A model generated the notes under the pieces. It saw only the letters and a list, made by a program, of their open reading frames with translations, was not told where the DNA came from and made no database searches. 64,000 nucleotides of DNA from Nitrincola sp. (GTDB taxonomy: Bacteria > Pseudomonadota > Gammaproteobacteria > Pseudomonadales > Balneatricaceae). A program made the position numbers and the translations under genes. Below, piece by piece: positions 22,801-50,940 of this stretch (its first letter is position 1; every line of letters starts with the position of its first letter). Location of the stretch: the NCBI RefSeq assembly GCF_048264025.1, contig NZ_JBLXDN010000004.1, forward strand, positions 30,026-94,025. The letters are read 5' to 3'.

Positions 22801-23427
22801 ATCGTGGAGGTTCGGATCACGGGTGAAACGGGTGTACGAGAAGCCGGTCAAGACAGTGATGCTCTATACCCGCCAAGTGCCATTGATTGGGGGCAGCTGT
22901 CTCCCTCAAATTCGGTGAAAGCCTCCTACAGTCATACTAGCGATGTTGATACTGATCGTGATGGCAAAGACGATGATGATCTGCCAGATGTTCAAATCAG
23001 TCTACTCACACTGGGTCAGCAAGGCTTTATGCAACTCAAGCCGCTGGCTCCCCCTGTAACGGGGGTACAGTTGCGTACCGATCTTTCCAAAGGGCTGCTG
23101 GAGCAGGGTTTACAGATAGAGTCGCTGCCCCTGGCAAACACTGATGCCGATGAAGCCGTCGATAATGATGAACAAGACGCTGTCGAGCAAGCTGATCAGG
23201 TCCTGGATTTACTGGATCCAGGTTTATCAGCCGAGGGTGAGTCTTTCAACCCTACTGGTTCAGAGATACCTGATGAAGAGGATCAAGAGCTCGATGCAAC
23301 CGAAGAAGCAGAAGAAACCCAAGAGATAAATGAAGACGCTGCCAGTTTGCAAGCGTTGCAGACCCTGGCACAGACCGCCGCGTTAACAACCCGTCCTGGA
23401 CGTATTCTCTGGGGTTGGAACGGATGA
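4861..23427 (+). CDS. Giant 6188-aa secreted-adhesin-like protein (LEPR-XLL-like motif, DUF4347-like domain, long mostly non-repetitive body, RTX-like repeats, ~70-aa super-repeats, 4 VCBS-type repeats, acidic tail)
   Basis: Uninterrupted 18.6-kb ORF with GGAGGA 7 nt upstream of the ATG. No hydrophobic signal peptide. Only about 5 Cys seen by eye. Gly/Asp-rich Ca-binding-type repeats and VCBS-like repeats are typical of type-1-secreted giant adhesins. Confidence 0.9.
   Translation: [6188 protein letters not shown]
5008..5028 (+). other. LEPR-XLL-like N-terminal motif (LEQRFML) of the giant protein
   Basis: [12 protein letters not shown] at residues ~48-59 resembles the LEPRxLL(S/F)(A/G)D signature found at the N-termini of very large repetitive bacterial proteins. 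Confidence 0.5.
5155..5640 (+). other. DUF4347-like domain of the giant protein
   Basis: [14 protein letters not shown] ... [48 protein letters not shown] ... [38 protein letters not shown] ... GGNWIFEY matches my memory of the DUF4347 pattern. Confidence 0.7.
17060..18190 (+). repeat. RTX-like Gly/Asp nonapeptide-type repeat blocks (protein level)
   Basis: [85 protein letters not shown] and [29 protein letters not shown] all fit GGxGxDxUx-like units. Confidence 0.7.
18250..21215 (+). repeat. About 14 tandem ~60-75-aa super-repeats (GGxDxI ... GGxGxDxI ... GDNGxI/F), protein level
   Basis: Recurring units start with [120 protein letters not shown] and [10 protein letters not shown]. Each is followed by a second GGxGxD box and a GDN(G/A)-x-(I/V/F) strand. 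Confidence 0.7.
21610..22827 (+). repeat. Four tandem ~100-aa VCBS-type repeats (protein level)
   Basis: Each unit ends with a strand plus a V/TxG-x-N/T-D/N-x-A/P boundary: [102 protein letters not shown]. Each has an internal G-x-W-x-Y motif (GAWRYNL, GRWEYQL, GDWVYTL, GQWGYQL). Confidence 0.75.
22840..23424 (+). other. Acidic, low-complexity C-terminal tail of the giant protein
   Basis: [15 protein letters not shown] ... [24 protein letters not shown] ... [29 protein letters not shown]. Confidence 0.7.
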
Positions 23428-25535: not shown

Positions 25536-25549
25536 TAGAGGCACAGAGA

Positions 25550-28500
25550 ATGAAAAAGAATAGAAAATACAACGCATCGGTTCGGGCTTTTACCCCCCGA
25601 CTGTTGCCACTGCTGATTGCCTCGGCCATATCACCGATGACGGCGATCGCTGCACCGGATGCCAATGAATTACCCAATGGGGGGCAAATAGTTCATGGGC
25701 AAGGGGCTATTTCCCAGGCGGGTAATGTGATGAATGTTCAACAGAACACGCAGAACATGATTACTAACTGGAACAGCTTCAACGTAGGTAGTCAGGCGAC
25801 TGTGAACTTCCATCAGCCTGGTGCGAGTTCTACGGTGTTGAACCGGGTCACATCCGGTGATCCCAGCCAGATTCATGGTCAGATCAATGCCAATGGTAAT
25901 GTGATCATTGCTAACCCGGCTGGCGTCATGTTCGGGCAGTCGGCCCGCGTGGATGTCGGTGGCTTGATGGCAGCGGGTCAGGATATTGCTGATCAGGATT
26001 TTGTCGAAGGTAATCTGCAACTGGATAAGATGTCAGCCGGTGGACAGGTGATCAACCAGGGACAGATTCATACCCGAAGTGGTGGATTCGTAATTCTGGC
26101 GGCTGATCAGGTCAGTAATAGCGGACGCATCGAAGCCCCGGAAGGCACGGTGGCGTTGCTGGCTGGCGAGCAGGCGCGTGTAGAACTGACGGCAGGCGGG
26201 CTGATCGGTATTCGGGTGGATGGCGAAACCGCAACTGCCGCCATTCAAAACACGGGTGTGCTGGTATCCGACGGTGGCAAGGTTCTCATTCAGAGTCGAC
26301 AGGCCACCGGTGCCTTGGCGGCTGCTGTCAATCAGACGGGTATTATCCGTGCTAATTCAGTGGCTGAAAATGAAGGGCGCATCATTATTGACGGGGGGCA
26401 GGGCGATGTGCTGCTGGCGGGCAGGGTTGAAGCAACTGGTCTTGAACCCGATCTGTCCGGAGGCTATATCAGTGCCACAGGTGACCGGGTGCTGGTCAGT
26501 GGTGAACTGGATGCCAGTGGCGCCAATGCTGGTGGCGAGGTTTATCTGGGAGGTGGTTGGCAAGGGCAGGATGCTGCGATTGCTGAAGCACGTCAGGTAC
26601 ATATCGAGATGGGGGCACGGGTAACTGCCGATGCTACGGTGGAAGGTGATGGTGGACAGATAGCGCTCTGGTCTTCTGAAGTGACCACCCATGCCGGGGT
26701 TATTTCAGCACGTGGTGCCGGTGATGGACAAGGCGGTGCAGTCGAAACTTCCAGTCGCGGTGCTTTGGGTGTGACGGGTGAGGTGGATGTGTCTGCAACC
26801 ACGGGCCAGGGGGGCTTGTGGCTACTTGATCCTGAAAATATCACCGTGGTCACCCCAGGCGGTGTTAACTGGGATGGAGCTGGCGCGGGAAATGTCAGTG
26901 TGAGTAACACCTCCATACAGAATACTCTCAATACCGGTGGTAACGTTATTCTTCAGGCCGATGACAGCATCACTATTGCAGCCAATATTTCCAAAACATC
27001 GGGTGGTGATGCACGTCTGACATTTGATGCGGGTGGCAACATTACCCTGAACACGGGTATCGATATATCGGCTACCACTGGACGGCTACATCTGGATTTC
27101 GGTACCACGTTACCCAGTACCGGCACGGCCTTCATTAATGGTCGACTGGCCACCAACGGTGGTACGGTCACTTTCTGGAAAGATGCCCAGATGGGGGCTT
27201 CCAATCCTGTCAGTACCCAAATCACCGGAATAGTGGGTGGCACAGGCCCTTATACCTCAGGTGATATCATCTTCAAACAGGATCTCTTGCTGGCGGCCAG
27301 TGATGCCAATGTCACCCTGGGCGCACAGGGACAATCTGACGGTGGTTTCACCGGTCTGGGTGGTGATATTCGTATTGAGGGTGATATATACAGCGTAGAA
27401 GCAGCCAATCAGTTACTTCGACCTCAGTCCCTGACGCTGGATACGCGTGGCACATCAGCGGGTGCGATTGTATTGGGCAGTGACGCCAGTAATTTTGTTG
27501 GTGGCAACGGCCAGTCGGCCTTACGACAGCTAAGCTTTCTCGGTCCTCAGACAATTACCCTGAACGCCGGCCTGATCAATCTGTTGTCACCCTCGGGTGC
27601 GGTGATCACTGCTGGATCGACATTGGGAACCCCCGAGTTACAGCTGAATGCCGCACATACCATAATAAATATTAACGGTGGCACGGTATCCGGTGTCACT
27701 GGCTATACCGACTATGTGCAGGATACCTTTGATATTCGTGGAATGAGTACGGCGGAATCATTGGTGATCAATTCCGACCGTTCGATCAAGATTCTGAATC
27801 AGCAAATTGCTGCCGACAGAGCCGAAGGGATGGATGTGATCCTGAATCCCTTTGTTGCCGCTGATGCATTAGGTGGTGCTGTGATTATGCTGGAAGCTGC
27901 GATTCTCACTAACGGTGGCAATATTTTTCTCGGCGGTGCCTCGAACCTGACTAATGCCGGTGTGGTGAATAATGCTGATGTTGACCAGTTTGCCGCAGGT
28001 TTTGCCGGTGACAGTGACAGCCGTACCGATGGGGTGTTTCTGCAGAATGTCCAGTTGGACAGTCGTGGTACGGATACCGATGGACTGATCAATATCAGTG
28101 GCCGAGCGCCTTTGGCGCAATCAGCCGGTGCCGGGGTGCGTATTGCCGGTGCGGCGACACGGATTGAGTCGGGCCGTAATGATATACAGGTGATTGGGCG
28201 TGTTACTACCCAGACCAATGCCGGTAATAAAGACGGTGTTATTATTGGTGAAGGCAGTGCGGCACGCTCATTGCTGGCGACCAGCAGCGGTAATCTGATT
28301 GTTGAAGGTGATGCGTCTGCCGTGGTGAATCCAAGCGGTGGTACCCGTTATAACGGCTTGATGCTGTCTTCCGGGGTGCTGTTGCGTACCGAGACAGGTG
28401 ATATACAGTTAACCGGGCGCGGTGGTGGTGGCAACCAGAACTTTATTCAGGAGAACCATGGTATTCGCATGGAAGACCTGAATACCAGTGTGATTTCCGA

Positions 28501-31500
28501 ATCTGGTAATATTCTGCTGTTGGGCGCTTCGGGTGGCAAAACCTCTGATCAAGGGGAAAACAGCTATGGCATCTATGCTGCTGGTAATGCCATGTACATT
28601 GGCCGGGATCAGAACCGCAGTACCGCCGCAGGAGATATCGTCTTCGTAGGTGACTCCATGCAGTTCGTCAACACCTCAGATCAGCGTCTGCAGGTGTCTA
28701 GCAGTGGTCACCTGGTCATTCGTCCCGAGCATGACGACACCAATATCCATCTGGGCAATGCCGGCACCCGCCCCGAACTAAATGGGGTCAGTACCCTTTA
28801 TTTAGGCGAGAACTGGTTTAACGGCAGTGCCCTGGGGGTGTTTCTGCCAGGACCAGTGATCACAGCCAGTAATGTATCCACTAATGTGCAGCAACTCTCT
28901 ATACAGGGTAATGCTGGTGGTGCTTTCACTCTGGTTATCGGTGAGCAGGAAACCGCGGCCATTACCTATACCACTAACCTGACAGATCTACGTGATCAGA
29001 TTCAGGCCGCTATACAGGGGATAACCGGACATGAGGGAGCCACTGTCAGTATTTCCGGTAGTAACTTACGGATTAACTTTACCGCTGCTCCCGCCAGTCT
29101 AGTGGTCGCTGGTGGCGATACCCGCGGCTTTGAAGCGATCACGTTGGGCCGCAGTGATCTGACCGGCCAGATTCAAGTGAATGCACCCACGACTTTCCGT
29201 GATGATGTGACGTTTTTGAGTGGCACGCATGGCAGCGACTATCAGGCCAATATGGTCATTAATTCGGCATTGACCGTACAACGTCAACCCAATTCAACCC
29301 AGCATGGATTGCTGACACTGGTAGCGAATGCTTTGGATAAACGAGCGTTGGTGGCCAAAGGGTTGATTACAGCCAATCAACTTAATTTGCTGGGCGCAGG
29401 TCAGTTTATAGCGACTGCCAGTAACCAGATTGCAGGTTTCTCCGCCGAGGTGGAAGGTGATGTCACACTGCGTAACAACCAGTCACTTCAGATTACAGAA
29501 AATGAATCACTCTGGCTGGATGCTATCGATTATGCGGGTAATCCGGTTCTGACCACCCCCACCGCTCAGACAACCACAGGTATTACCCTGACCGGTGGTC
29601 GACAGCTTGAAGTGCTGCTGGATACAGGTGATTTACGCCAGTCAGAAAATGTTTTCGTTGAAAGTGGCAAAGTCAGCCTGGTGACCGGTGGTGGACGTAT
29701 TATTCAGGAAAATAATGCCATTATTCGTGCTGCTAACCTTTGGTTATCAGCTACTACGGGCATTTCAGCGTTACACAGTGATAATGAAATCGACGCCTTG
29801 GCGGGCAACTTTACTGGTAGCGCCGGGCTAGAATTTAGCAATGCTCAGACGCTGTCGATAGACGGAGTGTCGATTGATCAATATCGTGCTGATACCGCTT
29901 CAACCAGTCTGGAAGGACAAGTGAATACCACCGAGTCAGATCGAAATGGTCTGCGTGGCGCCACTGGCGCCAGTGGTGGCACACTGGCAGTTGTTGTCAG
30001 ACAGGGAGATTTGTTACAGGGTGCGACTGAAGGTAGTTCGCAGTTACGGGCACAGCGAGCGGTGCTGCTGGCTGACCAAGGTAGCCTGTTGCTACAGAAT
30101 CAAACCAATCAAATCAGTATATTAACTGCCAAAGTGAATGCTGATAATGAGGATATAACCGTGTTCAATGCCCAGGCGATGACGCTTGGTAGTGTCACCG
30201 GGCTATCTGAAGCTCTCATTACTGGCGGCACTCAAGTAGGCGCTCAGGCAGCTGAGGGTGGTAATATCACCCTGGCGACAGTCAATGGCACCTTGACGGT
30301 AGCACGAGATGTGATGACGCTTGGCAGTGGAAATATCGATTTGCGTGCCGGTGGCACAGCGTCAAATCTAGCCATTGTGCCGGAGTCTGGTCAGCTTGCT
30401 TCGATCAGCAGTGGCAGCGGACAGATACAGCTGTTGGCCGGGCAAAGTATTACTACGCAATCCACCAGCGATGCTAGCGCTGAAGTGAGCACTGCTGGCA
30501 ATGTAATGCTACAGGCGGGCAGTGCGATAGGTTCTCAACAGAATCGAATCGAACTATCCGGTGTCGATACCCTGGCAGCCACGGCAGGTAATGGCAGCAT
30601 TTGGCTGCGCAGTCTCGGTACAGATCCAATAATATTGGGTCAAGTGAATGCATTGAATTCGGCTCAGTTAGTCGGTGGTGCGGTCACTGATCTTGCTGGA
30701 CTGATTACACAGCAGGGTAATGGTAATATCACCCTGACCACTCAGGGCGGTGATATTCGTGTGGTGTCAGCGCTGAATGCCAATGGCAGTGGTTATGTTG
30801 ATTTGCGCACAGCGGGCACAGGTAATATTGACATCAATGGCGCGACAATTACCTCTGCAACCGGGACGCTGCAGTTGGTTGCGGGTGGGGCTATTGGTAC
30901 CAATACTCTGACCGGTACTCAGGCAGAGCTGGCGACAGCCGGTCAGGTGTTGCTGAGTAGTGGCGGTCAGATAGGCACAGAAACCCAGCGCATCGAGATC
31001 GCCAGTGCCGCTCAGTTGGCCTCTCAGAGTCTTGGCAGTCAGTTTATTGCGCATAGCGGTGATGATCTGGCGATCAGTCAGGTTAATGCTGTTAATAGCA
31101 GCAGTGAGCTGGATAGGAGTGTCACCTCACTCAGTGGCATGAACGCCGGTCAGGGCAGTGTAATCGATCTGGATGTAGATCAGGCACTGTCACTGAATGC
31201 GGGTATCAGCACAACAACGACTGCTGGCATTGTCCGACTGGCGGCTGCCAGCATCAGTCAGTTAGTCGACAGTGGTAGCGAAATCTTGACGCAGGGTCTG
31301 CAACTGATTTCCCGTGTCGGCGATCTGCGCTTGGAAAACACCCACAACAGTGTGACAACACTGGCGGCCCGTGCTGCAGCGGGAGCCAGTTATACCAACC
31401 TTGGAAACTTGCAGGTTGATACGGTTTCTGGGGTGCAGGGCATCACAGCGGCCACAGATATTACCCTTCGCAGTGTCGAAGGTGATTTGACCCTGCTGCA

Positions 31501-32965
31501 AGCGCTGGAGGCTGATCAAGCGGCTGGTGTGATTACCCTGCAAGCGTTGCAAGGGGGTGTCCAGTCAGGCAATGCAGCCATCAGCACCGACGCCTTGAGA
31601 CTGGTTGCGGCCCAGAGCAGCGATCTGAGTCATGCCGGCAATCAACTAAACCGTGTGGCGGTGCAGTTGTCGCAGACTCATGCCGACTTCGAGTTAGTGA
31701 ACCAGAGCGGTTTTACCCTTGACAGGGTGATCACCAGTCTTGGGCACAGCGAGAGCCAGGGGCAAACGGATGGCATTCTCACCGCCGGTGGGAATATAAA
31801 CCTGCGGATTAGTGGTAGCGGGGATCTGCAACTCGCACAACAGCTATCCACGGGTTCTCGACAGCAAGGACGTGTCAGCTTAAACGCTGCAGATGGCTCT
31901 TTACTGCGCACGGCAACCGCTGGAATGATTACTGCTAATCAGCTGCAATTGCAGGCAAGTGGGGATGCGCTGCTGACGCAGCCGCAGAATGCGCTGAATA
32001 CAGCTTCTACAACACTCTTCCGTACCGAAAATGCCAATCAGGTAGCAGTTTTGGCAGCAGACCTGGGCGGCGACCTAATGTTTGCGGGTCTGGGGAGTCT
32101 GGAAGTTGGCCAGGTGCTGACGGATGGTGTTCAGGCTGATAATGTCTGGATACGTGCTCAGCAGGATCTCAGGCTGACTCAATCGGTAGTTGCTGACGCG
32201 ACTGGATTGCGTCCAGTGATATTGTCGGCGGGTAATCAATTTTTCAACCAGACGGGTCAGGGTACTGATGCAATTCAGGCTCAGGGTGGGTGGTTGATCT
32301 ATGAGCAGAGCGTCAATGGCTTTACCCAGCGGCTGGCTGGGTTGGTACCCGATTTCAGCTTTTTCAGCACTAGCTACGAACTGCAACGTCCAGGCAATGT
32401 TAGCTTGATGGGTAACGGTTATCTGGTGGGTACGCCGATTGCCGATCCAGAACAGTATCTGCGTCTTCCGGGAACAGAGAACAACACCAGTGGTAACCCT
32501 TTGACAGAGGGTGCAGCGTCTCAGCAGCCCAGTCCTTTGCTGGTATCCCTGGCACCGGTTATCGAGTCAGATCCAGATACCAGCTATGGCATGACGCTGT
32601 CGGTACTGCCTGCCGAAAGCGGATTTGCCAGTCTGACAACCCACTCAACGGGTGGACGTACCCTGGTAGCGCCTGTCGCTATGCAGGTTAGTGCGGATAA
32701 GCCGTTCCAGACCTTGCTGGGTCGTATACTGGGCGATGCAGAGTTGATTGGTGTTTCGCTGGTTGACGGTTCGCCATTACCGGATACACTGCAACTGCTG
32801 GGTAAGGGGCCTTCATTGCGACTGGTTGGCAGCCTGCCTTTGAGCAGCTCACCGTTGTTTATACGACTGGCCATGCAGCATCCGCACAGCGGTGAACCAC
32901 AATGGGTGGATATCCTGATTGAGATCACTGCGCCTGAAGACGACACTGAAACAACAATTATCTAA
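25550..32965 (+). CDS. TpsA exoprotein, filamentous-haemagglutinin-like (N-terminal TPS secretion domain plus long beta-helical repeats)
   Basis: Extended signal peptide. TPS domain LPNGGQIVHGQGAISQAGNVMNVQQNTQNMITNWNSFNVGSQATVNFHQPGASSTVLNRVTSGDPSQIHGQINANGNVIIANPAGVMFG. The body has recurring ...NQI..L.A...GD..L.N...L.I..V... beta-helix-type units. Confidence 0.9.
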   Translation: MKKNRKYNASVRAFTPRLLPLLIASAISPMTAIAAPDANELPNGGQIVHGQGAISQAGNVMNVQQNTQNMITNWNSFNVGSQATVNFHQPGASSTVLNRVTSGDPSQIHGQINANGNVIIANPAGVMFGQSARVDVGGLMAAGQDIADQDFVEGNLQLDKMSAGGQVINQGQIHTRSGGFVILAADQVSNSGRIEAPEGTVALLAGEQARVELTAGGLIGIRVDGETATAAIQNTGVLVSDGGKVLIQSRQATGALAAAVNQTGIIRANSVAENEGRIIIDGGQGDVLLAGRVEATGLEPDLSGGYISATGDRVLVSGELDASGANAGGEVYLGGGWQGQDAAIAEARQVHIEMGARVTADATVEGDGGQIALWSSEVTTHAGVISARGAGDGQGGAVETSSRGALGVTGEVDVSATTGQGGLWLLDPENITVVTPGGVNWDGAGAGNVSVSNTSIQNTLNTGGNVILQADDSITIAANISKTSGGDARLTFDAGGNITLNTGIDISATTGRLHLDFGTTLPSTGTAFINGRLATNGGTVTFWKDAQMGASNPVSTQITGIVGGTGPYTSGDIIFKQDLLLAASDANVTLGAQGQSDGGFTGLGGDIRIEGDIYSVEAANQLLRPQSLTLDTRGTSAGAIVLGSDASNFVGGNGQSALRQLSFLGPQTITLNAGLINLLSPSGAVITAGSTLGTPELQLNAAHTIININGGTVSGVTGYTDYVQDTFDIRGMSTAESLVINSDRSIKILNQQIAADRAEGMDVILNPFVAADALGGAVIMLEAAILTNGGNIFLGGASNLTNAGVVNNADVDQFAAGFAGDSDSRTDGVFLQNVQLDSRGTDTDGLINISGRAPLAQSAGAGVRIAGAATRIESGRNDIQVIGRVTTQTNAGNKDGVIIGEGSAARSLLATSSGNLIVEGDASAVVNPSGGTRYNGLMLSSGVLLRTETGDIQLTGRGGGGNQNFIQENHGIRMEDLNTSVISESGNILLLGASGGKTSDQGENSYGIYAAGNAMYIGRDQNRSTAAGDIVFVGDSMQFVNTSDQRLQVSSSGHLVIRPEHDDTNIHLGNAGTRPELNGVSTLYLGENWFNGSALGVFLPGPVITASNVSTNVQQLSIQGNAGGAFTLVIGEQETAAITYTTNLTDLRDQIQAAIQGITGHEGATVSISGSNLRINFTAAPASLVVAGGDTRGFEAITLGRSDLTGQIQVNAPTTFRDDVTFLSGTHGSDYQANMVINSALTVQRQPNSTQHGLLTLVANALDKRALVAKGLITANQLNLLGAGQFIATASNQIAGFSAEVEGDVTLRNNQSLQITENESLWLDAIDYAGNPVLTTPTAQTTTGITLTGGRQLEVLLDTGDLRQSENVFVESGKVSLVTGGGRIIQENNAIIRAANLWLSATTGISALHSDNEIDALAGNFTGSAGLEFSNAQTLSIDGVSIDQYRADTASTSLEGQVNTTESDRNGLRGATGASGGTLAVVVRQGDLLQGATEGSSQLRAQRAVLLADQGSLLLQNQTNQISILTAKVNADNEDITVFNAQAMTLGSVTGLSEALITGGTQVGAQAAEGGNITLATVNGTLTVARDVMTLGSGNIDLRAGGTASNLAIVPESGQLASISSGSGQIQLLAGQSITTQSTSDASAEVSTAGNVMLQAGSAIGSQQNRIELSGVDTLAATAGNGSIWLRSLGTDPIILGQVNALNSAQLVGGAVTDLAGLITQQGNGNITLTTQGGDIRVVSALNANGSGYVDLRTAGTGNIDINGATITSATGTLQLVAGGAIGTNTLTGTQAELATAGQVLLSSGGQIGTETQRIEIASAAQLASQSLGSQFIAHSGDDLAISQVNAVNSSSELDRSVTSLSGMNAGQGSVIDLDVDQALSLNAGISTTTTAGIVRLAAASISQLVDSGSEILTQGLQLISRVGDLRLENTHNSVTTLAARAAAGASYTNLGNLQVDTVSGVQGITAATDITLRSVEGDLTLLQALEADQAAGVITLQALQGGVQSGNAAISTDALRLVAAQSSDLSHAGNQLNRVAVQLSQTHADFELVNQSGFTLDRVITSLGHSESQGQTDGILTAGGNINLRISGSGDLQLAQQLSTGSRQQGRVSLNAADGSLLRTATAGMITANQLQLQASGDALLTQPQNALNTASTTLFRTENANQVAVLAADLGGDLMFAGLGSLEVGQVLTDGVQADNVWIRAQQDLRLTQSVVADATGLRPVILSAGNQFFNQTGQGTDAIQAQGGWLIYEQSVNGFTQRLAGLVPDFSFFSTSYELQRPGNVSLMGNGYLVGTPIADPEQYLRLPGTENNTSGNPLTEGAASQQPSPLLVSLAPVIESDPDTSYGMTLSVLPAESGFASLTTHSTGGRTLVAPVAMQVSADKPFQTLLGRILGDAELIGVSLVDGSPLPDTLQLLGKGPSLRLVGSLPLSSSPLFIRLAMQHPHSGEPQWVDILIEITAPEDDTETTII

Positions 32966-32987
32966 CAGCACCCTAGAGGATCAATGC

Positions 32988-33290
32988 ATGAGTGATGAAA
33001 ACGAACTGAAATCAGCCGCACAAGCTAACCCTGCCCAGTCGCCCAAAATCCACTGGGACGACAGTGAAATGCAGACTAACTATTCCAATGTCTGCAATGT
33101 CATGGGTACGCGTGAGGAGATCATGTTGCTGTTCGGTTCCAATCAGGCCTGGCAAACGGGTCAGACCGAAGTGAAGGTTAAATTATCCAATCGTATTCTG
33201 CTGACACCCCATGCGGCGAAACGCCTCAAGGTATTGCTGGAAATGGGCCTGAAAGAATATGAAACCAGATTCGGTGAAGTCAAACTCTGA
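32988..33290 (+). CDS. DUF3467-family small protein (100 aa)
   Basis: AGAGGA sits 7 nt upstream of ATG 32988. YSNVCNVMGTREEIMLLFG ... RILLTPHAAKRLKVLLEMGLKEYETRFGEV matches the DUF3467 pattern as I remember it. The longer ORF from 32919 would overlap the tpsA 3' end and was not used. Confidence 0.75.
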   Translation: MSDENELKSAAQANPAQSPKIHWDDSEMQTNYSNVCNVMGTREEIMLLFGSNQAWQTGQTEVKVKLSNRILLTPHAAKRLKVLLEMGLKEYETRFGEVKL

Positions 33291-35082
33291 TATTGCTGTG
33301 ACAGAATCATCCAACGACTGGCTCGGACAGCTACAACAGGCGTCTGAGCCAGATTTTTTTGTACGTTGGCTGGCGTTGTTACAGCAGGAGTTGCCAGGTC
33401 TTGAAGAGGCCGTATTGGTATTGGGACCAGCTGATCAGGGGCCTTTCAAGCCCATTGTGACACATCCACAGAACACCCCCTGTTCATCGGTGTTGATGCG
33501 CTTGTGCGAACAGGTTATGCAACTACGCCGTCCGTTGAGTCAGCGTAATGAGTCTGTGACCCACTGGGTAGTGCCTATTCAACAGGGTGGTGCACTACTG
33601 GGGGTATTGGGTCTGACGGCTAAGAGTCTCTCGACACAGCAACGCCAATGGCTGCAGTGGGGCCTGGGGTGGATACTGACCCGTACCGAGACTTATCAGC
33701 AGGCTGGAGACAGTGAGCTGAGTGAACGTCTGATGGTGCTGCTGGATCTGTTGATGTCCTCTGTTGGAGGGCAGTCATTGCAGGATGCTTGTCAGGCTGT
33801 TTTGTCTCAGGCTGCTGTGAATCTGGGTTGTGATCGAATAGCGCTGGGCTTTGCTACCGGGCAGAGTGTTCGCATGGTAACCCTCTCCAACAGTGCTGAA
33901 TTCACCCGCAGAATCGATCTGGTGCAGTGTATTGAAGGTGCCATGAACGAGGCCGTGGACCAGGGGCATAGTCTATGCTGGCCGCAGCAACAGACCAGTC
34001 TCGATACCTTCAGAGCACATCAGGCGTTAATTCGTGAGCAGGGTAATCACACGGTATTGACGGTACCCTTCATGACGGATGTCGAAAATTACGGCGCCAT
34101 CTGTTTCGAGTGGGCTGAAGCGCCTGATGAACAGCAGCCAGAGTTAGCTGAATCCATTGCCAGTGTTGTTGGCCGCGTGCTGTTGGAAAAGCGTCAGTCA
34201 GAACTGTCTTTGCTCAGTTATCTGGGCCGGCGCGTGAAACATGTCTGCAAGCGTCTGGTCGGGCCTCGCTACCTGGGCACCAAGCTGCTGGTGTTGTTAG
34301 TGACCGTGAGCGTGATATTTTTTACCTTGGCTGAAGGCACTTTCCGCTTAGCATCAGATGCTCGCCTTGAAGGGGCATCGAACCGCACTCTTTCGGCTCC
34401 CTTTGACAGCTATGTTATGGTTGCCCATTACCGTGCGGGTCAGACCGTGGAAGAAGGCGAGGTGCTGGCCGAGCTGGATGACAGTGATCTGCGCCTTGAG
34501 CAACTTCGCTGGCAGAGCCAGTTAGCACAGTTTGAACGTCAAATGCGCCAGTCCCAGGCGCAACGCGATACGGCTCAGGCAAGGGTTGCTGCCGCACAGA
34601 CCGAGCAGGCCGAAGCTCAACTGGCACTGACCAACTCATTGCTCAGCCGCACGCAGATTCGCGCACCCTTTACGGCGCTGATTACGCGAGGTGATCTATC
34701 CCAAGACTTGGGCCTGCCGGTTACCAAAGGGCAAGTGCTGTTTGAGCTGGCGCCACTGGATGAATATCGTTTAGTCCTGGATCTGGCAGAAACTGATATG
34801 GCACATATTCGTGAAGGGCAGCAAGGCCAGTTGGTTCTGAAAGCCTTTCCAGAGGCCAGAATCGATTTCGAGGTGATTAGCGTAACGCCCGTGGCCGAAG
34901 CTCGTGATGGCAAGAACCTGTTTCGCGTTGAAGCTGAAATCGCTCAGCTGTTACCCGCTATGCGTCCTGGTATGGAAGGTGTGGCAAAAGTGGAGGTCAG
35001 TCAGCAGCGTTTGATCTGGATATGGACACGTACACTGGTAGACTGGGCACGTCTGCAATGGTGGAAGTGGTTGGGGCGCTAA
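33259..35082 (+). CDS. Tandem GAF-like cytoplasmic domains, 1 TM, then a periplasmic HlyD-family adaptor
   Basis: The ATG at 33259 overlaps the upstream gene by 32 nt; an in-frame GTG at 33298 is the alternative start. GAF-like blocks (ACQAVLSQAAVNLGCDRIALGF ... VLTVPFMTDVENYGAICFEW). TM LLVLLVTVSVIFFTLA. HlyD features: lipoyl-like hairpin VAHYRAGQTVEEGEVLAELDD, a coiled coil, and TQIRAPFTALITR. Confidence 0.8.
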   Translation: MKPDSVKSNSDIAVTESSNDWLGQLQQASEPDFFVRWLALLQQELPGLEEAVLVLGPADQGPFKPIVTHPQNTPCSSVLMRLCEQVMQLRRPLSQRNESVTHWVVPIQQGGALLGVLGLTAKSLSTQQRQWLQWGLGWILTRTETYQQAGDSELSERLMVLLDLLMSSVGGQSLQDACQAVLSQAAVNLGCDRIALGFATGQSVRMVTLSNSAEFTRRIDLVQCIEGAMNEAVDQGHSLCWPQQQTSLDTFRAHQALIREQGNHTVLTVPFMTDVENYGAICFEWAEAPDEQQPELAESIASVVGRVLLEKRQSELSLLSYLGRRVKHVCKRLVGPRYLGTKLLVLLVTVSVIFFTLAEGTFRLASDARLEGASNRTLSAPFDSYVMVAHYRAGQTVEEGEVLAELDDSDLRLEQLRWQSQLAQFERQMRQSQAQRDTAQARVAAAQTEQAEAQLALTNSLLSRTQIRAPFTALITRGDLSQDLGLPVTKGQVLFELAPLDEYRLVLDLAETDMAHIREGQQGQLVLKAFPEARIDFEVISVTPVAEARDGKNLFRVEAEIAQLLPAMRPGMEGVAKVEVSQQRLIWIWTRTLVDWARLQWWKWLGR

Positions 35083-37238
35083 TGTCTTCTCTTTTTTCAG
35101 CGTCCTGGTATCGCTTGGCAGATCTGGTCCCTCGGCTACGTACACAAACCCGGATTTTTCGGCATGTCTATCGTGGTCAGCGCTGGCATGTCATTCAGGA
35201 TTTAGCCAGTGGCAAATTCTTGCGTCTGAACCCCACAGCTTACAGTATCCTCTCGCTGGTGGATGGACAGTCTACGCTTGATCAAATCTGGAAACAGGCG
35301 GTTGAGCAGTTGCAGGATGATGCGCCGAGTCAGGATGAGGTGCTGCAGTTGATGACGCAGTTAAACCAGATCGGTGTACTGACCAGCAATCGAACTCCCG
35401 ATATTGAAGAGCTTAGCGAACGCTCTATCAAAGCACGACGCAATCGTGTTAAACAATATATTGCCAACCCATTGGCGCTAAGGGTGCCATTGATTGATCC
35501 GGATCGTTTTTTGCAGCACTTAGTGGGTCATATTCCAGTCTGGGCACGACCGCTGCTGCTGACTATCTGGTTAGTCACTGTGGTGTTCGGTATCAGTCTT
35601 GCGGCACTTCACTGGCCCGAACTGACCGGTGATCTGACACGACTGGTATTTACCCCGGAGTATATTTTTACGCTGATCCTGGTGTTTCCACTGATCAAAG
35701 CGATCCATGAATTGGGACATGGTATTGCGATCAAACTGTTTGGTGGCCAGTGTCATGAAATGGGGTTGATGTTTCTGGTGATGGTCCCGATTCCCTACGT
35801 TGATGCCAGTCATGCCATAGCATTTAAGAGCAAATACCAGCGTATGCTGGTGGGCGCTGCCGGGATGATGATTGAGCTATTTGTTGCCAGTCTCGCACTG
35901 TGGCTCTGGACCTGGACACAGCCGGGACTGCTGAGGGTCTTTCTACACGATATTGTGATCCTCGCGGGTGTGGTAACGCTGTTATTCAACTTGAACCCTT
36001 TATTAAGATTCGATGGTTACTACATTTTCAGTGACTGGCTGGAAATTCCCAATCTGGGGAATAAAGCGAATCAGTATTTTGGCTATTTACTGAAACGTTA
36101 CTTGTTGCGTATTGACCGAGGCTTACAGCCGCCACGTCTAACGGCTGGAGAACCGGCTTGGTTGATTAGCTTTGCACTGTTGTCTTTTGTATATCGGATG
36201 TTCATTGTCGGGATGATTCTGCTGTTTGTCGCCTCCCAGTTTTTTGTCATCGGGGTGCTGCTGGCGGCCTATGCGTTCTTTTTGATGATTTTGATGCCGT
36301 TGAGTCGTACCCTCAAGACAGCCTTTAGCGATCCATTAATCAGTGAAAAGCGTCCTCGTCTGTACCTGGTCAGTTTCACGGCTGTTAGTCTGCTGGTAGG
36401 GTTGGTCGGGGTGCTGCCCTTGCCATCAGCGACCTTTGTAGAGGGGGTGGTGTGGATGCCGGAGCAGTCACAGGTACGCGCACGGACCGACTGTTTTGGT
36501 CAGCAGGTACTACACAACCCCGGGGTCGTGAAAGCCGATGAGCCCCTGCTATACTGTGATGAGCCTGTATTGCCAGCCGAGCTGCAGGAAACGCAGGCAC
36601 GTTTGGCTGAGCTGGATGCGGAGTTGCTGCTGGCGAGAGGGACAGACAGAGTCCTGGCACAAAATCTTCTGGAAGAGCGCCAGCATGTTGAGCAGCGTGT
36701 TGCTACGCTTGAACAGCGTATTGATGCCTTCGAAATTCGCAGTCCACATGCGGGTGAATTTGTGATGTCATCGCCTGATGACTTTATGGGTCGCTGGTAT
36801 CATCGTGGCGATATTATTGGCTATCTGCTGGATCCTAGCCACTTCACTTTACTTGTTGCTGTTGATCAGGCCGATGTTGACCGTATTCGCAGTGACAGTG
36901 TCAGTATTGCTATGCGTTCTGCCGACTCAGTACATCAGTCACACCCACTTCGAATATTGCGAGCTGTGCCAGCAGCCACGCGTGATCTGCCAAGCCTGGC
37001 GTTGTCATTGCAAGGGGGAGGGCGTATTGGCTTAAGCCCTGACGGAGCGCCGGGAAGTCGGCCTCAGGCACTCAATCCGGTATTTCTGTTCGAACTGGAA
37101 CTGCTGCAGCCCGAAAACTTTGCGGTACAGGCTTTGGGTGGACGTGTCTATGTTCGCTTTGCGCATACCGATGAGTCAGCGGCACGGCAGATATACCGTC
37201 ACCTGCGTGAACTCTTTATTCGTCGTTTTGGAATCTGA
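35082..37238 (+). CDS. PqqD/RRE-like domain, polytopic M50 (site-2-protease-type) metallopeptidase and C-terminal HlyD-like domain, fused
   Basis: Start at the ATG of TAATG (35080-35084), overlapping the upstream stop. N-terminal FLRLNPTAYSILSLVDGQSTLDQIWKQAVEQL...VLQLMTQLNQIGVL is PqqD-like. HELGH at 35706-35720; NPLLRFDG at 35994-36017. Several TM helices. The C-terminal coiled coil plus FEIRSPHAGEF is HlyD-like. Confidence 0.8.
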   Translation: MSSLFSASWYRLADLVPRLRTQTRIFRHVYRGQRWHVIQDLASGKFLRLNPTAYSILSLVDGQSTLDQIWKQAVEQLQDDAPSQDEVLQLMTQLNQIGVLTSNRTPDIEELSERSIKARRNRVKQYIANPLALRVPLIDPDRFLQHLVGHIPVWARPLLLTIWLVTVVFGISLAALHWPELTGDLTRLVFTPEYIFTLILVFPLIKAIHELGHGIAIKLFGGQCHEMGLMFLVMVPIPYVDASHAIAFKSKYQRMLVGAAGMMIELFVASLALWLWTWTQPGLLRVFLHDIVILAGVVTLLFNLNPLLRFDGYYIFSDWLEIPNLGNKANQYFGYLLKRYLLRIDRGLQPPRLTAGEPAWLISFALLSFVYRMFIVGMILLFVASQFFVIGVLLAAYAFFLMILMPLSRTLKTAFSDPLISEKRPRLYLVSFTAVSLLVGLVGVLPLPSATFVEGVVWMPEQSQVRARTDCFGQQVLHNPGVVKADEPLLYCDEPVLPAELQETQARLAELDAELLLARGTDRVLAQNLLEERQHVEQRVATLEQRIDAFEIRSPHAGEFVMSSPDDFMGRWYHRGDIIGYLLDPSHFTLLVAVDQADVDRIRSDSVSIAMRSADSVHQSHPLRILRAVPAATRDLPSLALSLQGGGRIGLSPDGAPGSRPQALNPVFLFELELLQPENFAVQALGGRVYVRFAHTDESAARQIYRHLRELFIRRFGI

Positions 37239-37241
37239 TCC

Positions 37242-39221
37242 ATGTATGCATTGCAAACACGCACTGTTCAGTATCCGCAACGTACAGATTGGCATGAAGA
37301 TCCCTTGTTAGTGCGATTCTGGGACCGCGGTGCGACGTTGTTTCGTCGGCTGATTCTGATGAATGAAGCGCGACAAAAGGCATTCGTACGGGCGGTGTCA
37401 AAGTGTGAAATGGAACTGCAGGGGGCAACGTCTGAAGTGTTACAGCAGGCTTTATGTGATGTGCGCCTGCATTTGCGTCGGGAGGGTCTACAGCAGCGGC
37501 ATTTGGCACAGGCTTTTGCACTGGTGCGTGTGGCATCGCAACAGACGCTAGGGTTACGCCATCATGATGTACAGATTCGTGGCGGCCATGCCTTAGTGCA
37601 GGGTTTTCTGATCGAAATGAATACCGGCGAAGGTAAAACACTGACGGCTACCCTGGCCGCTGCTGTGGCGGCACTGTCAGGTCGACAAGTTCAGGTGGTG
37701 ACGGTCAATGATTATCTGGCTCAACGGGATGCTACTGAAATGCAGCCTCTCTATGAATGGTTGGGGCTACGCATCGCCTGGGTGCTTGAACAGGCCGGAC
37801 CGGCTGAACGACGCCAGGCCTATCAGGCTGATATTGTGTACTGCACCGGAAAAACGCTGACCTTTGACTACCTCAAGGACCGTATCGCTCTGGATGATCG
37901 TGTATCGCCTTTAAAAATGTTACTGGATGCCTACACCGGTCGCTGGCAACAACAGGTGCTCTTGCCAGGATTGCAGTTTGCCATAGTGGATGAAGTGGAC
38001 AGCATTCTGATCGATGAAGCACGCACACCGCTGATTATTTCATCCTCTGGCGGCTCAGCAGAAGAAGACGCTTTTTATGTCAGCGCGATTGAATTCGCCC
38101 AGCAACTGCGACAGGCAGAACATTTTCAATTCAGCGAAAACCGTCAGTTGATTGACCTGACACTGGCTGGACGTCATCTGCTGGAGCAACTGACTGCTGA
38201 AGCGGAAGGGCTGTGGTGTAACCGTTTTCGGCGAGAAGAAGCGATATTGCAAGCACTCAGTGCATTGCATCGCTTTCAACGGGATATTCATTATATTGTT
38301 CGCGACGACAAGGTGCTGATTGTTGATGAACATACTGGGCGGATCATGCCAGATCGTTCCTGGGAGAAAGGTATGCAGCAGCTGATTGAGGTCAAGGAGA
38401 GTGTTTCCTTGACACCGCCTCGTGTCACTCTGGCAAAAATCAGTTTTCAGCTGTTCTTTCGTCGCTTTCTGCAACTTTCCGGAATGTCGGGCACCTGTCG
38501 TGAAATTGCCGGGGAGATCAGTCGGGTGTACAACCTGCGGATGATCCGTATCCCGCCGCATAAACCCAGCCAACGTGTACAACATGCCAATCAGTTATTC
38601 GCCGATGTAGAGCAAAAATGGCTGGCAGTTGAAGCCTGTATTATTGAGTGCCAGCAACGCGGGCAGCCGGTGCTGGTTGGGACCCGTTCGATTTTAGCCG
38701 CAGATACCTTATCATCGCGCCTGCAGTCCCGTGGCGTTGAGCACCAATTATTACATGCCCGCCAGGATGAAACTGAGGCAGAAATTGTTGCACAGGCAGG
38801 GCAGCGCGGGCGCGTCACCATCGCTACGAATATGGCTGGACGAGGAACCGATATCAAACTGCAAGCGGGTGTAGCTGAACTGGGTGGTTTGCATGTACTG
38901 ATCACTGAGTTGCATGATAATCAGCGTATCGATCGGCAATTAATTGGCCGTTGTGCTCGACAGGGCGAACCCGGTAGTTGGCAGGAAATATTGTCACTTG
39001 AGGATGAGCTGGTGGCCAACTGGTTACCTGTATTAAATCGTCTACTGAGCCTGTTGTTGCGCTCTGCTCCTGAAAATCGAGCAATTCAATGGATGGCCCG
39101 CCGCTATTACCGATCCGCACAGTGGATGCTGGAGCGCTTACACCGGCGTATTCGTGCCAAACTGCTTAAGGCCGAATTCAATTTGCGCCGGTCACTTTCT
39201 TTTACCGGTAAGATGGAGTAA
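37242..39221 (+). CDS. Truncated SecA-like ATPase (659 aa; NBD1, reduced preprotein-binding region, NBD2; no C-terminal scaffold/wing/linker)
   Basis: Collinear with E. coli SecA. LGLRHHDVQIRGGHALVQGFLIEMNTGEGKTLTATLAAAVAAL (GEGKT at 37626-37640), VVTVNDYLAQRD, FAIVDEVDSILIDEARTPLIIS (DEVD at 37989-38000), YIVRDDKVLIVDEHTGR, GMSGT, PVLVGT, TIATNMAGRGTDIKL, GGLHVLITELHDNQRIDRQLIGRCARQGEPGS. The protein ends about 75 aa after the last motif. Confidence 0.9.
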   Translation: MYALQTRTVQYPQRTDWHEDPLLVRFWDRGATLFRRLILMNEARQKAFVRAVSKCEMELQGATSEVLQQALCDVRLHLRREGLQQRHLAQAFALVRVASQQTLGLRHHDVQIRGGHALVQGFLIEMNTGEGKTLTATLAAAVAALSGRQVQVVTVNDYLAQRDATEMQPLYEWLGLRIAWVLEQAGPAERRQAYQADIVYCTGKTLTFDYLKDRIALDDRVSPLKMLLDAYTGRWQQQVLLPGLQFAIVDEVDSILIDEARTPLIISSSGGSAEEDAFYVSAIEFAQQLRQAEHFQFSENRQLIDLTLAGRHLLEQLTAEAEGLWCNRFRREEAILQALSALHRFQRDIHYIVRDDKVLIVDEHTGRIMPDRSWEKGMQQLIEVKESVSLTPPRVTLAKISFQLFFRRFLQLSGMSGTCREIAGEISRVYNLRMIRIPPHKPSQRVQHANQLFADVEQKWLAVEACIIECQQRGQPVLVGTRSILAADTLSSRLQSRGVEHQLLHARQDETEAEIVAQAGQRGRVTIATNMAGRGTDIKLQAGVAELGGLHVLITELHDNQRIDRQLIGRCARQGEPGSWQEILSLEDELVANWLPVLNRLLSLLLRSAPENRAIQWMARRYYRSAQWMLERLHRRIRAKLLKAEFNLRRSLSFTGKME

Positions 39222-39224
39222 ATC

Positions 39225-39950
39225 ATGCGTTGGATGAAACAACAGATAGCTGCCGGGTTTTGCGTACTTGCCGTTGCTGTACCTATTCAGGCAACTGAGC
39301 TGTCAGTGCTGAGTTGTTTGCTGGAACCTTCACTGGATGCCGAGTTAGGTGTGCCTGTTGAGGGTGTGCTGGCTAAGGTTCATGCTGAGCGTTCGGTAAG
39401 GGTAGAGCAGGGTGCCGTATTGGCAGAGCTGGACCTCTCGGTAGAGCAAGCGATAATTAGCATGCAGCGTGCTCGCGAAAATTATGCCAGTCGGCGTCTG
39501 GAGCGCATTCAGGAGTTGCAATCAGGCAACCTGATACCCGCTCAGGAAGTGGATGACATCCGCACTGAGCAGCAACTGGCCCGCCTTGAGCTGGCTGTCC
39601 AGCAGGAACAATTGGAACTGCGCCGAGTGGTTAGTCCATTTTCCGGTATCATTGTGGAACGCTATGCTGATGTCGGTGACTTGATACAAAAAAGTCATAT
39701 TTTTCGATTAGTGCAGTTGGACCCGCTTTATGTTGAGGTGGTGATGACACTGGATCAATTTGGTCGGGTCGTTCCCGGCGACAGGTATCAGGTACATTTG
39801 CAACATCTAGAGACACAGCATGATGCTGAAGTGATTGCTGTTGATCCGATTATAGATGCCGGAAGTGGTACCTTTCGCGTGCGTCTGTCATTACCCAATC
39901 CGGATTCGCATATCCCGGCAGGTTTGAGTTGTAGTATTAACCCACTTTAA
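39225..39950 (+). CDS. Small (241 aa) periplasmic HlyD/MFP-type adaptor with signal peptide
   Basis: ATG lies 3 nt after the SecA-like stop. Signal peptide AAGFCVLAVAVPIQA. Lipoyl-like VEGVLAKVHAERSVRVEQGAVLAELD; short coiled coil; RRVVSPFSGIIVERYADVGD; beta-barrel-like FRVRLSLPNPD. Confidence 0.75.
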   Translation: MRWMKQQIAAGFCVLAVAVPIQATELSVLSCLLEPSLDAELGVPVEGVLAKVHAERSVRVEQGAVLAELDLSVEQAIISMQRARENYASRRLERIQELQSGNLIPAQEVDDIRTEQQLARLELAVQQEQLELRRVVSPFSGIIVERYADVGDLIQKSHIFRLVQLDPLYVEVVMTLDQFGRVVPGDRYQVHLQHLETQHDAEVIAVDPIIDAGSGTFRVRLSLPNPDSHIPAGLSCSINPL

Positions 39951-40008
39951 CTTTACGGATTGCGCATAAGGCTCTATCCGACATGAATAACTGATCAGAG
40001 ATTTAAGT

Positions 40009-40752
40009 ATGTATAAGAAACTGGTTCCACTGAACAAAGAACATCATCAACAATTGCGTATCCAGCCGATCAATGGCTTTCAGTTTGCAGCTGGTGTGCA
40101 CGTTGCCGCCGTTATGCTGCATGAGTTTGCCCGCGCCTCCGCGATTTACCCGATAGTGTTTCTTGAAGATCAGGCTCAGGATAAATTCTATCCCGTTGCT
40201 CTATTAGGTCTGGAGCAGAATGAGAATCTGTTTGTGACCGATGAAGGACGTTGGCAAGCCTCCTACATTCCCGCTGTAATTCGGCGTTATCCATTTGCAT
40301 TGGCTCGTTCGGGTGAAGACGAAGTGTTTACCGTCTGTATTGACGAAGACGCCGAATTGGTTAGTACCCAGGAAGGTAATCCGTTGTTCTCTGATACCGG
40401 TGAACCTGCTGAGGTGATTGAACAGGTCAAACGCTATTTGGGTGAGTTACAGCAAATGGAAGTGATCACTGAAGCATTTTGTCGGTTTCTGCAAAGCCAC
40501 AATCTGTTTACACCGCTAAATATGCAGGTTCGTGTGGGTAATAAAGTACAAAATGTGACCGGGTGCTATGTTGTGAATGAGCAGCGTTTTGCCAATCTTT
40601 CTGACGAGCTTTTTCTACAGATTCGTCATCAGCACTATCTGGCACCCATCTATGCACACCTGACTTCACTGTCGCGTACTGAAAATCTGGCGCTACTTAA
40701 GCAGGGTATTACATCGGTTAGTCAACCCTCGGATGACGACCAGGTTCATTAA
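40009..40752 (+). CDS. SapC-family protein
   Basis: HEFARASAIYPIVFLEDQAQDKFYPVALLGLEQNENLFVTDEGRWQASYIPAVIRRYPFAL is the characteristic SapC-family core. Confidence 0.85.
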   Translation: MYKKLVPLNKEHHQQLRIQPINGFQFAAGVHVAAVMLHEFARASAIYPIVFLEDQAQDKFYPVALLGLEQNENLFVTDEGRWQASYIPAVIRRYPFALARSGEDEVFTVCIDEDAELVSTQEGNPLFSDTGEPAEVIEQVKRYLGELQQMEVITEAFCRFLQSHNLFTPLNMQVRVGNKVQNVTGCYVVNEQRFANLSDELFLQIRHQHYLAPIYAHLTSLSRTENLALLKQGITSVSQPSDDDQVH

Positions 40753-40967
40753 TGATTCAAAATCAACAGGGAATATTCATTTTTTGTTCAGGACATATAG
40801 CCGTATCGACACTAGACTGGTTTATAAACAGCGTATCCCCTTCAAAGACTCGCGTGCAACAGGAGATGGGGCCTGAACGAACAAGGATGTTCGTGACAGG
40901 TTCTGGCAGAAAGTCTTAATTTCTGTCACTATAAATTTCTCTATTAATACCAATACGGCGAGTTAAG

Positions 40968-41462: not shown

Positions 41463-41566
41463 TCTCAACGCATTGGGATGTTGCAAATCAAGGTTAGGCC
41501 GTATTCGGGTTTAGTTTAAGTGATTTTTTGCTATGCTAAGGTTAGTGTATTCAAATTGAATTTTGT

Positions 41567-50932: not shown

Positions 50933-50940
50933 GATTGATT

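Follow-up and report, generated by a model that had tools for sequence, protein, structure and literature searches.

The Locus

A cassette of tightly coupled genes lies on the forward strand of a 64,000-nucleotide stretch of Nitrincola sp. DNA (contig NZ_JBLXDN010000004.1, positions 30,026 to 94,025, assembly GCF_048264025.1; hereafter the window). It encodes a GAF-domain HlyD-type protein, a PqqD-M50-HlyD fusion, a shortened SecA homologue and a short HlyD-type adaptor, and it lies next to a giant protein gene which is itself adjacent to a gene of the TolC family. The features are collected in Table 1. The genes of the cassette are either overlapping or only 3 nt apart. The M50 gene ends with TGA at 37238 and is separated by 3 nt (tcc) from the ATG of the SecA-like gene, which in turn ends with TAA and is followed after 3 nt (atc) by the ATG of the short HlyD-type gene, the gaps being as described in the initial annotation. 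A promoter and terminator scan of 32500-41600 gave counts at chance level and nothing could be said about transcription units.

Table 1. Features of the short SecA cassette and its neighbours, in coordinates of the window.
Coordinates	Strand	Feature	Support
2175..4805	+	TolC-family outer-membrane channel with N-terminal extension of about 440 aa containing an AMIN domain	NCBIfam search
4861..23427	+	Giant protein (6188 aa), candidate cargo; LEPR-XLL motif at residues 47-67 (nt 4999-5061), DUF4347 at 103-264 (nt 5167-5652), VCBS/cadherin-like/RTX repeats, C-terminal ...GRILWGWNG	NCBIfam LEPR-XLL above cut-off; no hydrophobic signal peptide
23415..32965	+	TpsB (706 aa) and TpsA (2471 aa; Sec signal peptide plus TPS domain), two-partner secretion pair	TpsB-TpsA pair next to the cassette in about 20 loci
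32988..33290	+	DUF3467 protein (100 aa), highly conserved accessory component of one subclade of the system	Pfam E=5.7e-25; present in 33/65 loci
33259..35082	+	GAF-domain membrane-fusion (HlyD-type) protein; about 335 cytoplasmic residues, one TM (339-357), periplasmic HlyD domain	Profile searches; TM scan
35082..37238	+	PqqD(RRE)-M50 metalloprotease-HlyD-like fusion, about 6-8 TM segments; longest ORF starts at 35022, homologues point to a start at 35082 (MSSLFSASWYR)	Pfam PqqD and Peptidase_M50; TM scan; HExxH and NPxxxxD invariant in 82/82 sequences
37242..39221	+	Short SecA-like ATPase, 659 aa, ATG start	100% identical to a Nitrincola sp. protein
37371..38519	+	NBD1 (residues 44-426, interrupted by the cross-linking domain); Walker A GEGKT (129-133), DEVD (250-253)	Pfam SecA_DEAD E=1.4e-94; K132 conserved in 64/66 sequences, D250 in 64/66, E251 in 66/66
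38067..38390	+	Preprotein cross-linking domain (residues 276-383), full length	Pfam SecA_PP_bind E=4.3e-26, model 3-110 of 110
38565..39017	+	NBD2 (residues about 442-592); TNMAGRGTD and arginine-finger motif RIDRQLIGRCARQGEPGS	Pfam P-loop_SecA E=1e-48; R534 and R562 conserved in 66/66 sequences, R565 and R570 in 65/66
39078..39203	+	Predicted single long C-terminal helix (residues 613-654), equivalent to the first helix of the SecA helical scaffold domain; protein ends 5 residues later	AF2 secondary structure
39225..39950	+	Short HlyD/RND-type periplasmic adaptor (241 aa) with N-terminal signal-peptide-like segment	Profile searches; TM scan
40009..40752	+	SapC-family protein; family linked to type I secretion of surface-layer proteins	Pfam E=1e-74; next to the cassette in 6 other loci
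55301..58704		ABC pair without adjacent adaptor, 15 kb away	Profile searches

Domain Architecture of the Short SecA

Profile and structure comparisons have been employed to establish which parts of SecA are retained. The Pfam search revealed NBD1, the cross-linking domain and NBD2 but no SecA_SW hit, and the NCBIfam SecA models are matched only to about position 600 of about 790. In a PDB sequence search, B. subtilis SecA was found at E=2e-119 with residues 61-649 of the query aligned to SecA 35-604. The AF2 model (pLDDT 86, pTM 0.79) gave B. subtilis SecA 1tf5 as the best Foldseek match with a TM-score of 0.77. The identity to canonical SecA is about 37% over NBD1, the cross-linking domain, NBD2 and the first scaffold helix, while the helical wing domain, the IRA1/two-helix finger and the C-terminal SecB/zinc-binding tail are absent. 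About 26 extra N-terminal residues with a conserved YPQR motif and a 17-residue insert in NBD1 were also observed. The protein resembles the E. coli N68 truncation (5k9t) plus one helix.

The initial annotation of this gene as a truncated SecA paralogue, collinear with the motor through both nucleotide-binding domains, is confirmed. Nevertheless, two of its statements need correction. The helical scaffold was described as apparently missing, but the tail of 80 residues that follows RQGEPGS (residues 573-579) is predicted to form a short helix (596-608) and a 42-residue helix (613-654), the latter aligning with the first long helix of the SecA scaffold domain. The segment between TPLIIS and YIVRDD was said to look shorter, but it comprises 82 residues as compared with 81 in B. 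subtilis SecA, and the reading of a reduced cross-linking domain was rejected. It appears to be shorter only than the E. coli version.

We also considered whether the gene might be the housekeeping secA or a decaying pseudogene, and both are very unlikely. The best 120 homologues are all 619-679 aa, dN/dS against N. lacisaponensis is about 0.03 and the catalytic residues are conserved in 64-66 of 66 sequences, although two relatives show one frameshift each. The score of 554-570 bits is below the cut-offs of the NCBIfam SecA models (800-862). The presence of a canonical secA elsewhere in this genome is inferred from the missing domains and from the work of Kamneva, Poudel and Ward (PLoS One 2015, PMC4452313), in which these proteins were found in addition to canonical SecA in the same genomes.

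Conservation of the Cassette

The arrangement was already described in silico by Kamneva et al. (PMC4452313), who reported secondary SecA_DEAD domain proteins with loss of the scaffold-wing domain, next to a GAF-HlyD protein, a weakly M50-like membrane protein, a HlyD protein and sometimes an OEP/TolC, and who suggested SecA_DEAD as the ATPase in place of that of an ABC transporter and the M50 protein as the membrane part. That study was purely computational and named no cargo, no PqqD domain, no DUF3467, no giant or LEPR-XLL proteins and no two-partner secretion neighbours, and Oceanospirillales such as Nitrincola do not appear in the parts of it that were examined. In M. extorquens AM1, the SecA-like, M50 and HlyD genes were barely expressed in exponential phase.

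The neighbourhood was found again in 80 further loci. In loci retrieved through the M50 fusion alone, the order GAF-HlyD, M50 fusion, SecA-like, HlyD holds, with the SecA-like gene adjacent in 62/63 informative loci, GAF-HlyD upstream of M50 in 69/71 and the short HlyD downstream in 51/59. The taxa range over Gamma-, Beta- and Alphaproteobacteria, Magnetococcales, Nitrospiraceae and Myxococcota and include Marinobacterium, Achromobacter, Bradyrhizobium and Zoogloea. However, six loci have the cassette without a SecA-like gene between M50 and the short adaptor, which means that the motor is not always encoded in cis. The family is large. The partner M50 fusion alone has 4018 clusters at 50% identity, and the family occurs in well-studied genera such as Achromobacter, Bradyrhizobium, Zoogloea and Methylobacter. 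Literature searches on the cassette and its domains found no experimental work in the library searched, and a 2021 Chem Rev review of tripartite systems does not mention the cassette in the portion examined.

No solved structure exists for the M50 fusion. The closest named relative of the fusion is a RiPP leader protease, the daptide intramembrane HExxH protease (NF041824), which it matches at E=4e-47 over model positions 2-364 of 379, although it carries an extra C-terminal HlyD-like periplasmic domain. This match, together with the combination of PqqD with an M50 HExxH protease, which is typical of RiPP leader processing, raises the possibility that the cassette matures and exports a small leader-bearing peptide, for example the DUF3467 product or an unannotated small ORF, with the SecA-like protein as an accessory unfoldase and the giant genes as mere neighbours. 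DUF3467 indeed sits directly upstream of the cassette in about half of the loci. We consider this unlikely, as the score of 161 bits is far below the cut-off of 300, no small precursor gene or modification enzymes were found in the operon, and DUF3467 is conserved over its whole folded length rather than in a leader/core pattern and is absent from half of the loci. The linkage of the giant genes described below is also against it.

The Candidate Cargo

The giant proteins next to the cassette lack a Sec signal peptide and carry a basic stretch, an N-terminal LEPR-XLL motif and DUF4347. The linkage was observed in both directions. A giant ORF sits directly upstream in 31/45 loci, while in loci retrieved through the DUF4347 N-domain alone 39/67 have a cassette or TolC gene directly upstream, and 25/27 giants flanked by the core cassette carry the LEPR-XLL motif. 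Nevertheless, roughly 40-50% of DUF4347 giants show no cassette within the visible upstream flank, though it could still lie downstream as it does here. Of three DUF4347 fragments on long contigs, one had the cassette directly upstream and two had none within 10 kb upstream, a one-sided view because the giant genes exceed the flank. The only solved DUF4347 protein (9QPE chain G, a small P. aeruginosa T6SS effector) is not significantly similar to the domain of the giant (E=1.1). At their C-termini the giants share an A/G/L-rich stretch followed by GRIxW and a basic tail, and the RTX repeats are internal.

The C-terminal hydrophobic segment with its basic tail could be a membrane anchor, and M50 enzymes are classically signalling proteases while the GAF domain suggests ligand sensing. 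One may therefore think of a regulatory or quality-control module, in which a site-2-protease-type M50 enzyme controls expression or release of the giant adhesin by regulated intramembrane proteolysis, the SecA-like ATPase extracts or unfolds the substrate and the cassette itself transports nothing. This is an unlikely explanation, as three membrane-fusion-type periplasmic domains and a TolC channel are hard to explain without transport and no anti-sigma or sigma factor genes are in the operon.

Proposed Export Mechanism

The model that we favour, with moderate confidence, is that the 659-aa protein is the cytoplasmic ATPase of a dedicated envelope-spanning exporter, which resembles a type I secretion system but has the ABC transporter replaced. 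In this model, the PqqD-M50-HlyD fusion and the GAF-HlyD protein form the inner-membrane platform, the short HlyD-type adaptor and a TolC channel complete the duct, and the cargo is the neighbouring giant adhesin-like protein with its N-terminal leader, a basic stretch followed by LEELEPRxLxSAD. The cytoplasmic PqqD-like domain would bind the leader, as RRE domains do in RiPP systems; the short SecA would hold the unfolded chain in its cross-linking-domain clamp and feed it into the membrane complex using ATP; the M50 active site would remove the leader; and the chain would leave through the adaptor/TolC tunnel. Every functional step, the identity of the membrane conduit and the direction of transport are inferred, and an M50 protease fold is not a known protein-conducting channel. 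The recurrent TpsB/TpsA pair is not explained by the model.

More tentatively, the cassette could represent a distinct type of Gram-negative secretion system for giant proteins, ABC-independent and powered by a SecY-independent SecA-like motor, with an RRE domain reading the LEPR-XLL leader, an intramembrane protease removing it, and a hetero-oligomeric HlyD-type tunnel and TolC as the exit. This would explain how thousands of LEPR-XLL/DUF4347 giant proteins without signal peptides reach the cell surface.

An alternative is that the short SecA is a SecA2-like helper of the general Sec pathway, delivering the giant protein or the TpsA to the housekeeping SecYEG channel, with the HlyD/TolC proteins acting only in a second, outer-membrane step. 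It is a true SecA homologue with a complete clamp domain, Kamneva et al. (PMC4452313) place the clade next to actinobacterial SecA2, which uses SecYEG, and the neighbouring TpsA does have a Sec signal peptide. However, this seems improbable, as the wing domain and the two-helix finger/IRA1, which in SecA-SecY structures generally engage the channel (PDB 3DIN and 5EUL are among the structure hits), are absent, the giant proteins lack signal peptides and the tight coupling is with membrane-fusion proteins rather than Sec genes. All four NCBIfam SecA2 models (TIGR03714, TIGR04221, TIGR04397 and NF012136) gave 372-505 bits against cut-offs of 725-1100.

Comparison with Known Systems

The accessory SecA2 proteins of Gram-positives and mycobacteria are likewise SecA paralogues next to very large surface proteins, and solved SecA2 structures were matched at E=1e-94 to 1e-111. 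The present protein is much more truncated than any SecA2 structure hit (705-786 residues) and its partners are membrane-fusion proteins, an M50 protease and TolC. None of the 30 window ORFs of at least 150 aa that were scanned, including the whole operon, is SecY- or Asp-like, the scan having left out five ORFs of that size on the + strand (50198-50932, 50935-51525, 53086-53748, 53748-54236 and 54233-55258) and four beyond 60376.

With type I secretion systems (HlyB-HlyD-TolC; the LapA/large-adhesin type) the locus shares HlyD-type adaptors and TolC beside a giant repeat-rich adhesin-like protein, and a SapC neighbour. No ABC transporter was found in the operon, the pair listed in Table 1 being the only one found in the window. 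There are three different adaptor-type proteins, and the conserved motif of the cargo is N-terminal, while the role of the shared C-terminal stretch is unknown.

Another comparison is with the SecA_DEAD domains embedded in Omnitrophota/Actinobacteria giant proteins (West-Roberts et al. 2023 preprint, 10.1101/2023.11.21.568195), where a SecA motor plus preprotein-binding domain without scaffold-wing is associated with giant proteins and was proposed to aid their own export. In that case the SecA module is part of the giant polypeptide and the neighbours are type II/IV-like secretion genes, while here it is a separate 659-aa protein in a HlyD/M50/TolC cassette.

Domain architecture and sequence conservation

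The ORF of the SecA-like protein starts with ATG and encodes 659 aa, and it lies 3 nt after the TGA of the upstream gene and 3 nt before the ATG of the next gene. The protein is clearly a SecA homologue. Pfam searches returned SecA_DEAD (E=1.4e-94), SecA_PP_bind (4.3e-26) and P-loop_SecA (1e-48), and phmmer against PDB sequences found B. subtilis SecA at E=2e-119, with query residues 61-649 aligned to residues 35-604, while SecA2 structures scored 1e-94 to 1e-111. No hit was obtained for SecA_SW (scaffold-wing). NCBIfam SecA and SecA2 models were matched only up to about position 600 of about 790, and the scores of 372-570 bits are far below the curated cut-offs of 725-1100.

An AF2 model built on 51 family members (pLDDT 86, pTM 0.79) was employed to map the remaining subdomains. 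Its best Foldseek match is B. subtilis SecA in the open form (1tf5, TM 0.77, 37% identity), and the E. coli N68 truncation (5k9t) is also among the hits. The protein begins with an N-terminal extension of about 26 residues carrying a conserved YPQR motif, followed by NBD1 (44-426), which is interrupted by a full-length cross-linking domain (276-383, Pfam model 3-110 of 110), and by NBD2 (about 442-592). A short helix (596-608) and one 42-residue helix (613-654), which aligns with the first long helix of the scaffold domain, come next, and only five residues remain after it. The wing domain, the IRA1/two-helix finger and the C-terminal tail are absent. Two details of the initial annotation need correction. 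The scaffold was thought to be missing, but one scaffold helix is kept, and the segment between TPLIIS and YIVRDD, which had looked shortened, is 82 residues against 81 in B. subtilis, so the cross-linking domain is not reduced. Nevertheless, its interpretation as a truncated SecA paralogue rather than the housekeeping secA is essentially right, although no search for a canonical secA in this genome was made.

The protein is 100% identical to a Nitrincola sp. entry, and the best 120 homologues are all 619-679 aa. In 66 family members taken from the loci described below, the Walker A lysine, the DExD acidic residues and the motif V/VI arginines are conserved in 64-66 sequences. Comparison with N. 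lacisaponensis gave a dN/dS of about 0.03 for this gene and 0.04-0.06 for its neighbours, though dS is saturated and the figures are qualitative only. Taken together, these results exclude a decaying pseudogene. Single frameshifts splitting the SecA-like gene were seen only in two of the compared loci, L008 (Oceanisphaera psychrotolerans) and L066, where they could reflect a sequencing error or local gene loss.

Genomic context

The genes surrounding the short SecA are listed in the table together with the smaller features discussed in the text. No ABC exporter is found in the operon, and the only ABC pair among the window ORFs scanned lies 15 kb away. The TolC-family protein is 876 aa and carries an N-terminal extension of about 440 residues with an AMIN domain, which is peptidoglycan-associated in other proteins. 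A similar 875-aa TolC precedes the giant gene in another locus (L089).

Genes and smaller features of the locus, with coordinates in the window
Coordinates	Strand	Feature
80-2014	+	sensor kinase (SBP-PAS histidine kinase), at the 5' end of the locus
2175-4805	+	TolC with an AMIN-containing N-terminal extension
4861-23427	+	6188-aa giant protein
4999-5061		LEPR-XLL motif of the giant protein (residues 47-67)
5167-5652		DUF4347 of the giant protein (residues 103-264)
23340-23427		C-terminus of the giant protein
23415-25535	+	TpsB
25550-32965	+	TpsA
32988-33290	+	DUF3467 (100 aa)
33259-35082	+	GAF-HlyD
35022-35082		interval between the longest ORF start of the M50 fusion and the start indicated by homologues
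35082-37238	+	PqqD-M50-HlyD-like fusion
37242-39221	+	short SecA
39210-39227		last codons of the SecA-like gene and start of the next gene
39225-39950	+	short HlyD-type adaptor with a signal-peptide-like N-terminus
40009-40752	+	SapC
40968-42899		IalB-family protein, EAL (c-di-GMP phosphodiesterase) protein and DUF4442 protein

Conservation of the cassette

Individual inspection of loci from Marinobacterium, Magnetococcus and Limnobacter revealed the same gene order. We then scanned one genome per species using the M50 fusion alone, so that the scan was independent of SecA, and obtained 80 loci from Gamma-, Beta- and Alphaproteobacteria, Magnetococcales, Syntrophorhabdus, Nitrospiraceae and Myxococcota. 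Where enough flank is present, GAF-HlyD is upstream in 69/71 loci, the short SecA is directly downstream in 62/63 loci, the short adaptor follows in 51/59 loci and DUF3467 is present in 33/65 loci. The figure for the short SecA counts six loci in which the longest ORF start overlaps the M50 gene, and in this set one locus alone (L070) lacks it. With the loci retrieved through the giant proteins (see below), six have the cassette without a SecA-like gene (L070, L105, L107, L111, L126 and L166). In these variants the M50 fusion is followed directly by the short adaptor and a LEPR-XLL giant, with no room for a SecA-like gene, and the motor is either encoded elsewhere or dispensable in these lineages.

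The M50 fusion keeps HExxH and NPxxxxD in 82/82 sequences. It has 4018 representatives at 50% identity with E<=1e-30, and nearly all of the 150 best hits are 700-740 aa, while six shorter ones look truncated. Although the longest ORF of the fusion begins further upstream, homologues start at MSSLFSASWYR, and the corresponding ATG overlaps the last base of the GAF-HlyD stop codon, suggesting translational coupling.

Giant proteins as candidate cargo

A giant ORF, cut by the end of the locus, lies directly upstream of the cassette in 31/45 loci, and in several other loci it lies directly downstream. Where the N-terminus is visible it has no hydrophobic signal peptide. Instead, a basic stretch is followed by LEELEPRxLxSAD and then by DUF4347. 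The window protein hits NCBIfam NF012209 (LEPR-XLL) at 26.2 bits against a cut-off of 17, and DUF4347 at E=9e-54. Among 120 DUF4347 N-terminal fragments, 91 carry the motif, at a median position of residue 19. In the reverse direction, 80 metagenomic loci were retrieved through the DUF4347 domain alone. Of the 67 loci with at least 1 kb of upstream sequence, 39 have a cassette or TolC gene directly upstream, which is a lower bound because the cassette can also lie beyond the 3' end of a 20-35 kb gene, as it does here. The M50 and/or SecA-like gene is seen in 27 loci, and 25 of those 27 giants carry the LEPR-XLL motif.

DUF4347 has invariant H..HG, YGC and TGADVAASDD columns, which could be a His/Cys catalytic dyad. 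The only solved DUF4347 protein (9QPE chain G, a small Hcp-loaded T6SS effector of P. aeruginosa) is not significantly similar. The C-termini of the giants in the window and in loci L003, L004, L016-L022, L028-L032 and L052 share an A/G/L-rich hydrophobic stretch, then G-R-I-x-W, then a basic tail, and the window protein ends ...AALTTRPGRILWGWNG. This pattern could be an anchor, a sorting signal or a secretion signal.

Earlier work and proposed mechanism

Kamneva, Poudel & Ward (2015) (PMC4452313) described secondary SecA_DEAD domain proteins lacking scaffold-wing, found them in addition to canonical SecA as a clade next to actinobacterial SecA2, and suggested a type-I-like machine. They named no cargo, PqqD domain or DUF3467. 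A 2023 preprint reports scaffold-less SecA modules inside Omnitrophota giant proteins, and a 2026 preprint on Chlorochromatium notes giant proteins without known export signals next to sapC and tolC, and a horizontally acquired secA in the same genome. No experimental study was found in the literature searched. The short SecA appears to belong to a published but uncharacterised family, and what is added here is that this widespread and untested system can be tied to a specific class of candidate giant cargo with a recognisable leader.

We propose that the PqqD domain binds the LEPR-XLL leader, that the M50 site cleaves it, that the short SecA drives the unfolded chain, and that the three HlyD-type domains and TolC form the duct, the inner-membrane conduit being unidentified. 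These steps are inferred. Leader binding in particular is suggested by analogy with RRE domains in RiPP pathways, and the N-terminal 425 residues of the fusion align with the daptide leader protease model over nearly its full length, although below its cut-off.

Accessory genes and minor features

A TpsB/TpsA two-partner secretion pair recurs beside the cassette in about 20 loci (among L003, L004 and L014-L034), either upstream as here or downstream. The TpsA has an ordinary Sec signal peptide, and the linkage is unexplained by the proposed mechanism. DUF3467 is extremely conserved across classes (for example NVCNV.GTREE and PxAAKRL) and is present in only about half of the cassettes. Its predicted secondary structure consists of three called beta-strands plus a low-confidence stretch (32-45), then one long helix, and no structural match was found.

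The last codons of the SecA-like gene (aag atg gag TAA) provide a GGAG 6 nt before the next ATG. The conserved C-terminal ...ME may therefore partly reflect the ribosome-binding site of the next gene, with the terminal glutamate constrained partly at the RNA level. The EAL protein and its neighbours downstream of the cassette, together with the SBP-PAS histidine kinase, may link the adhesin-like cargo to c-di-GMP regulation.
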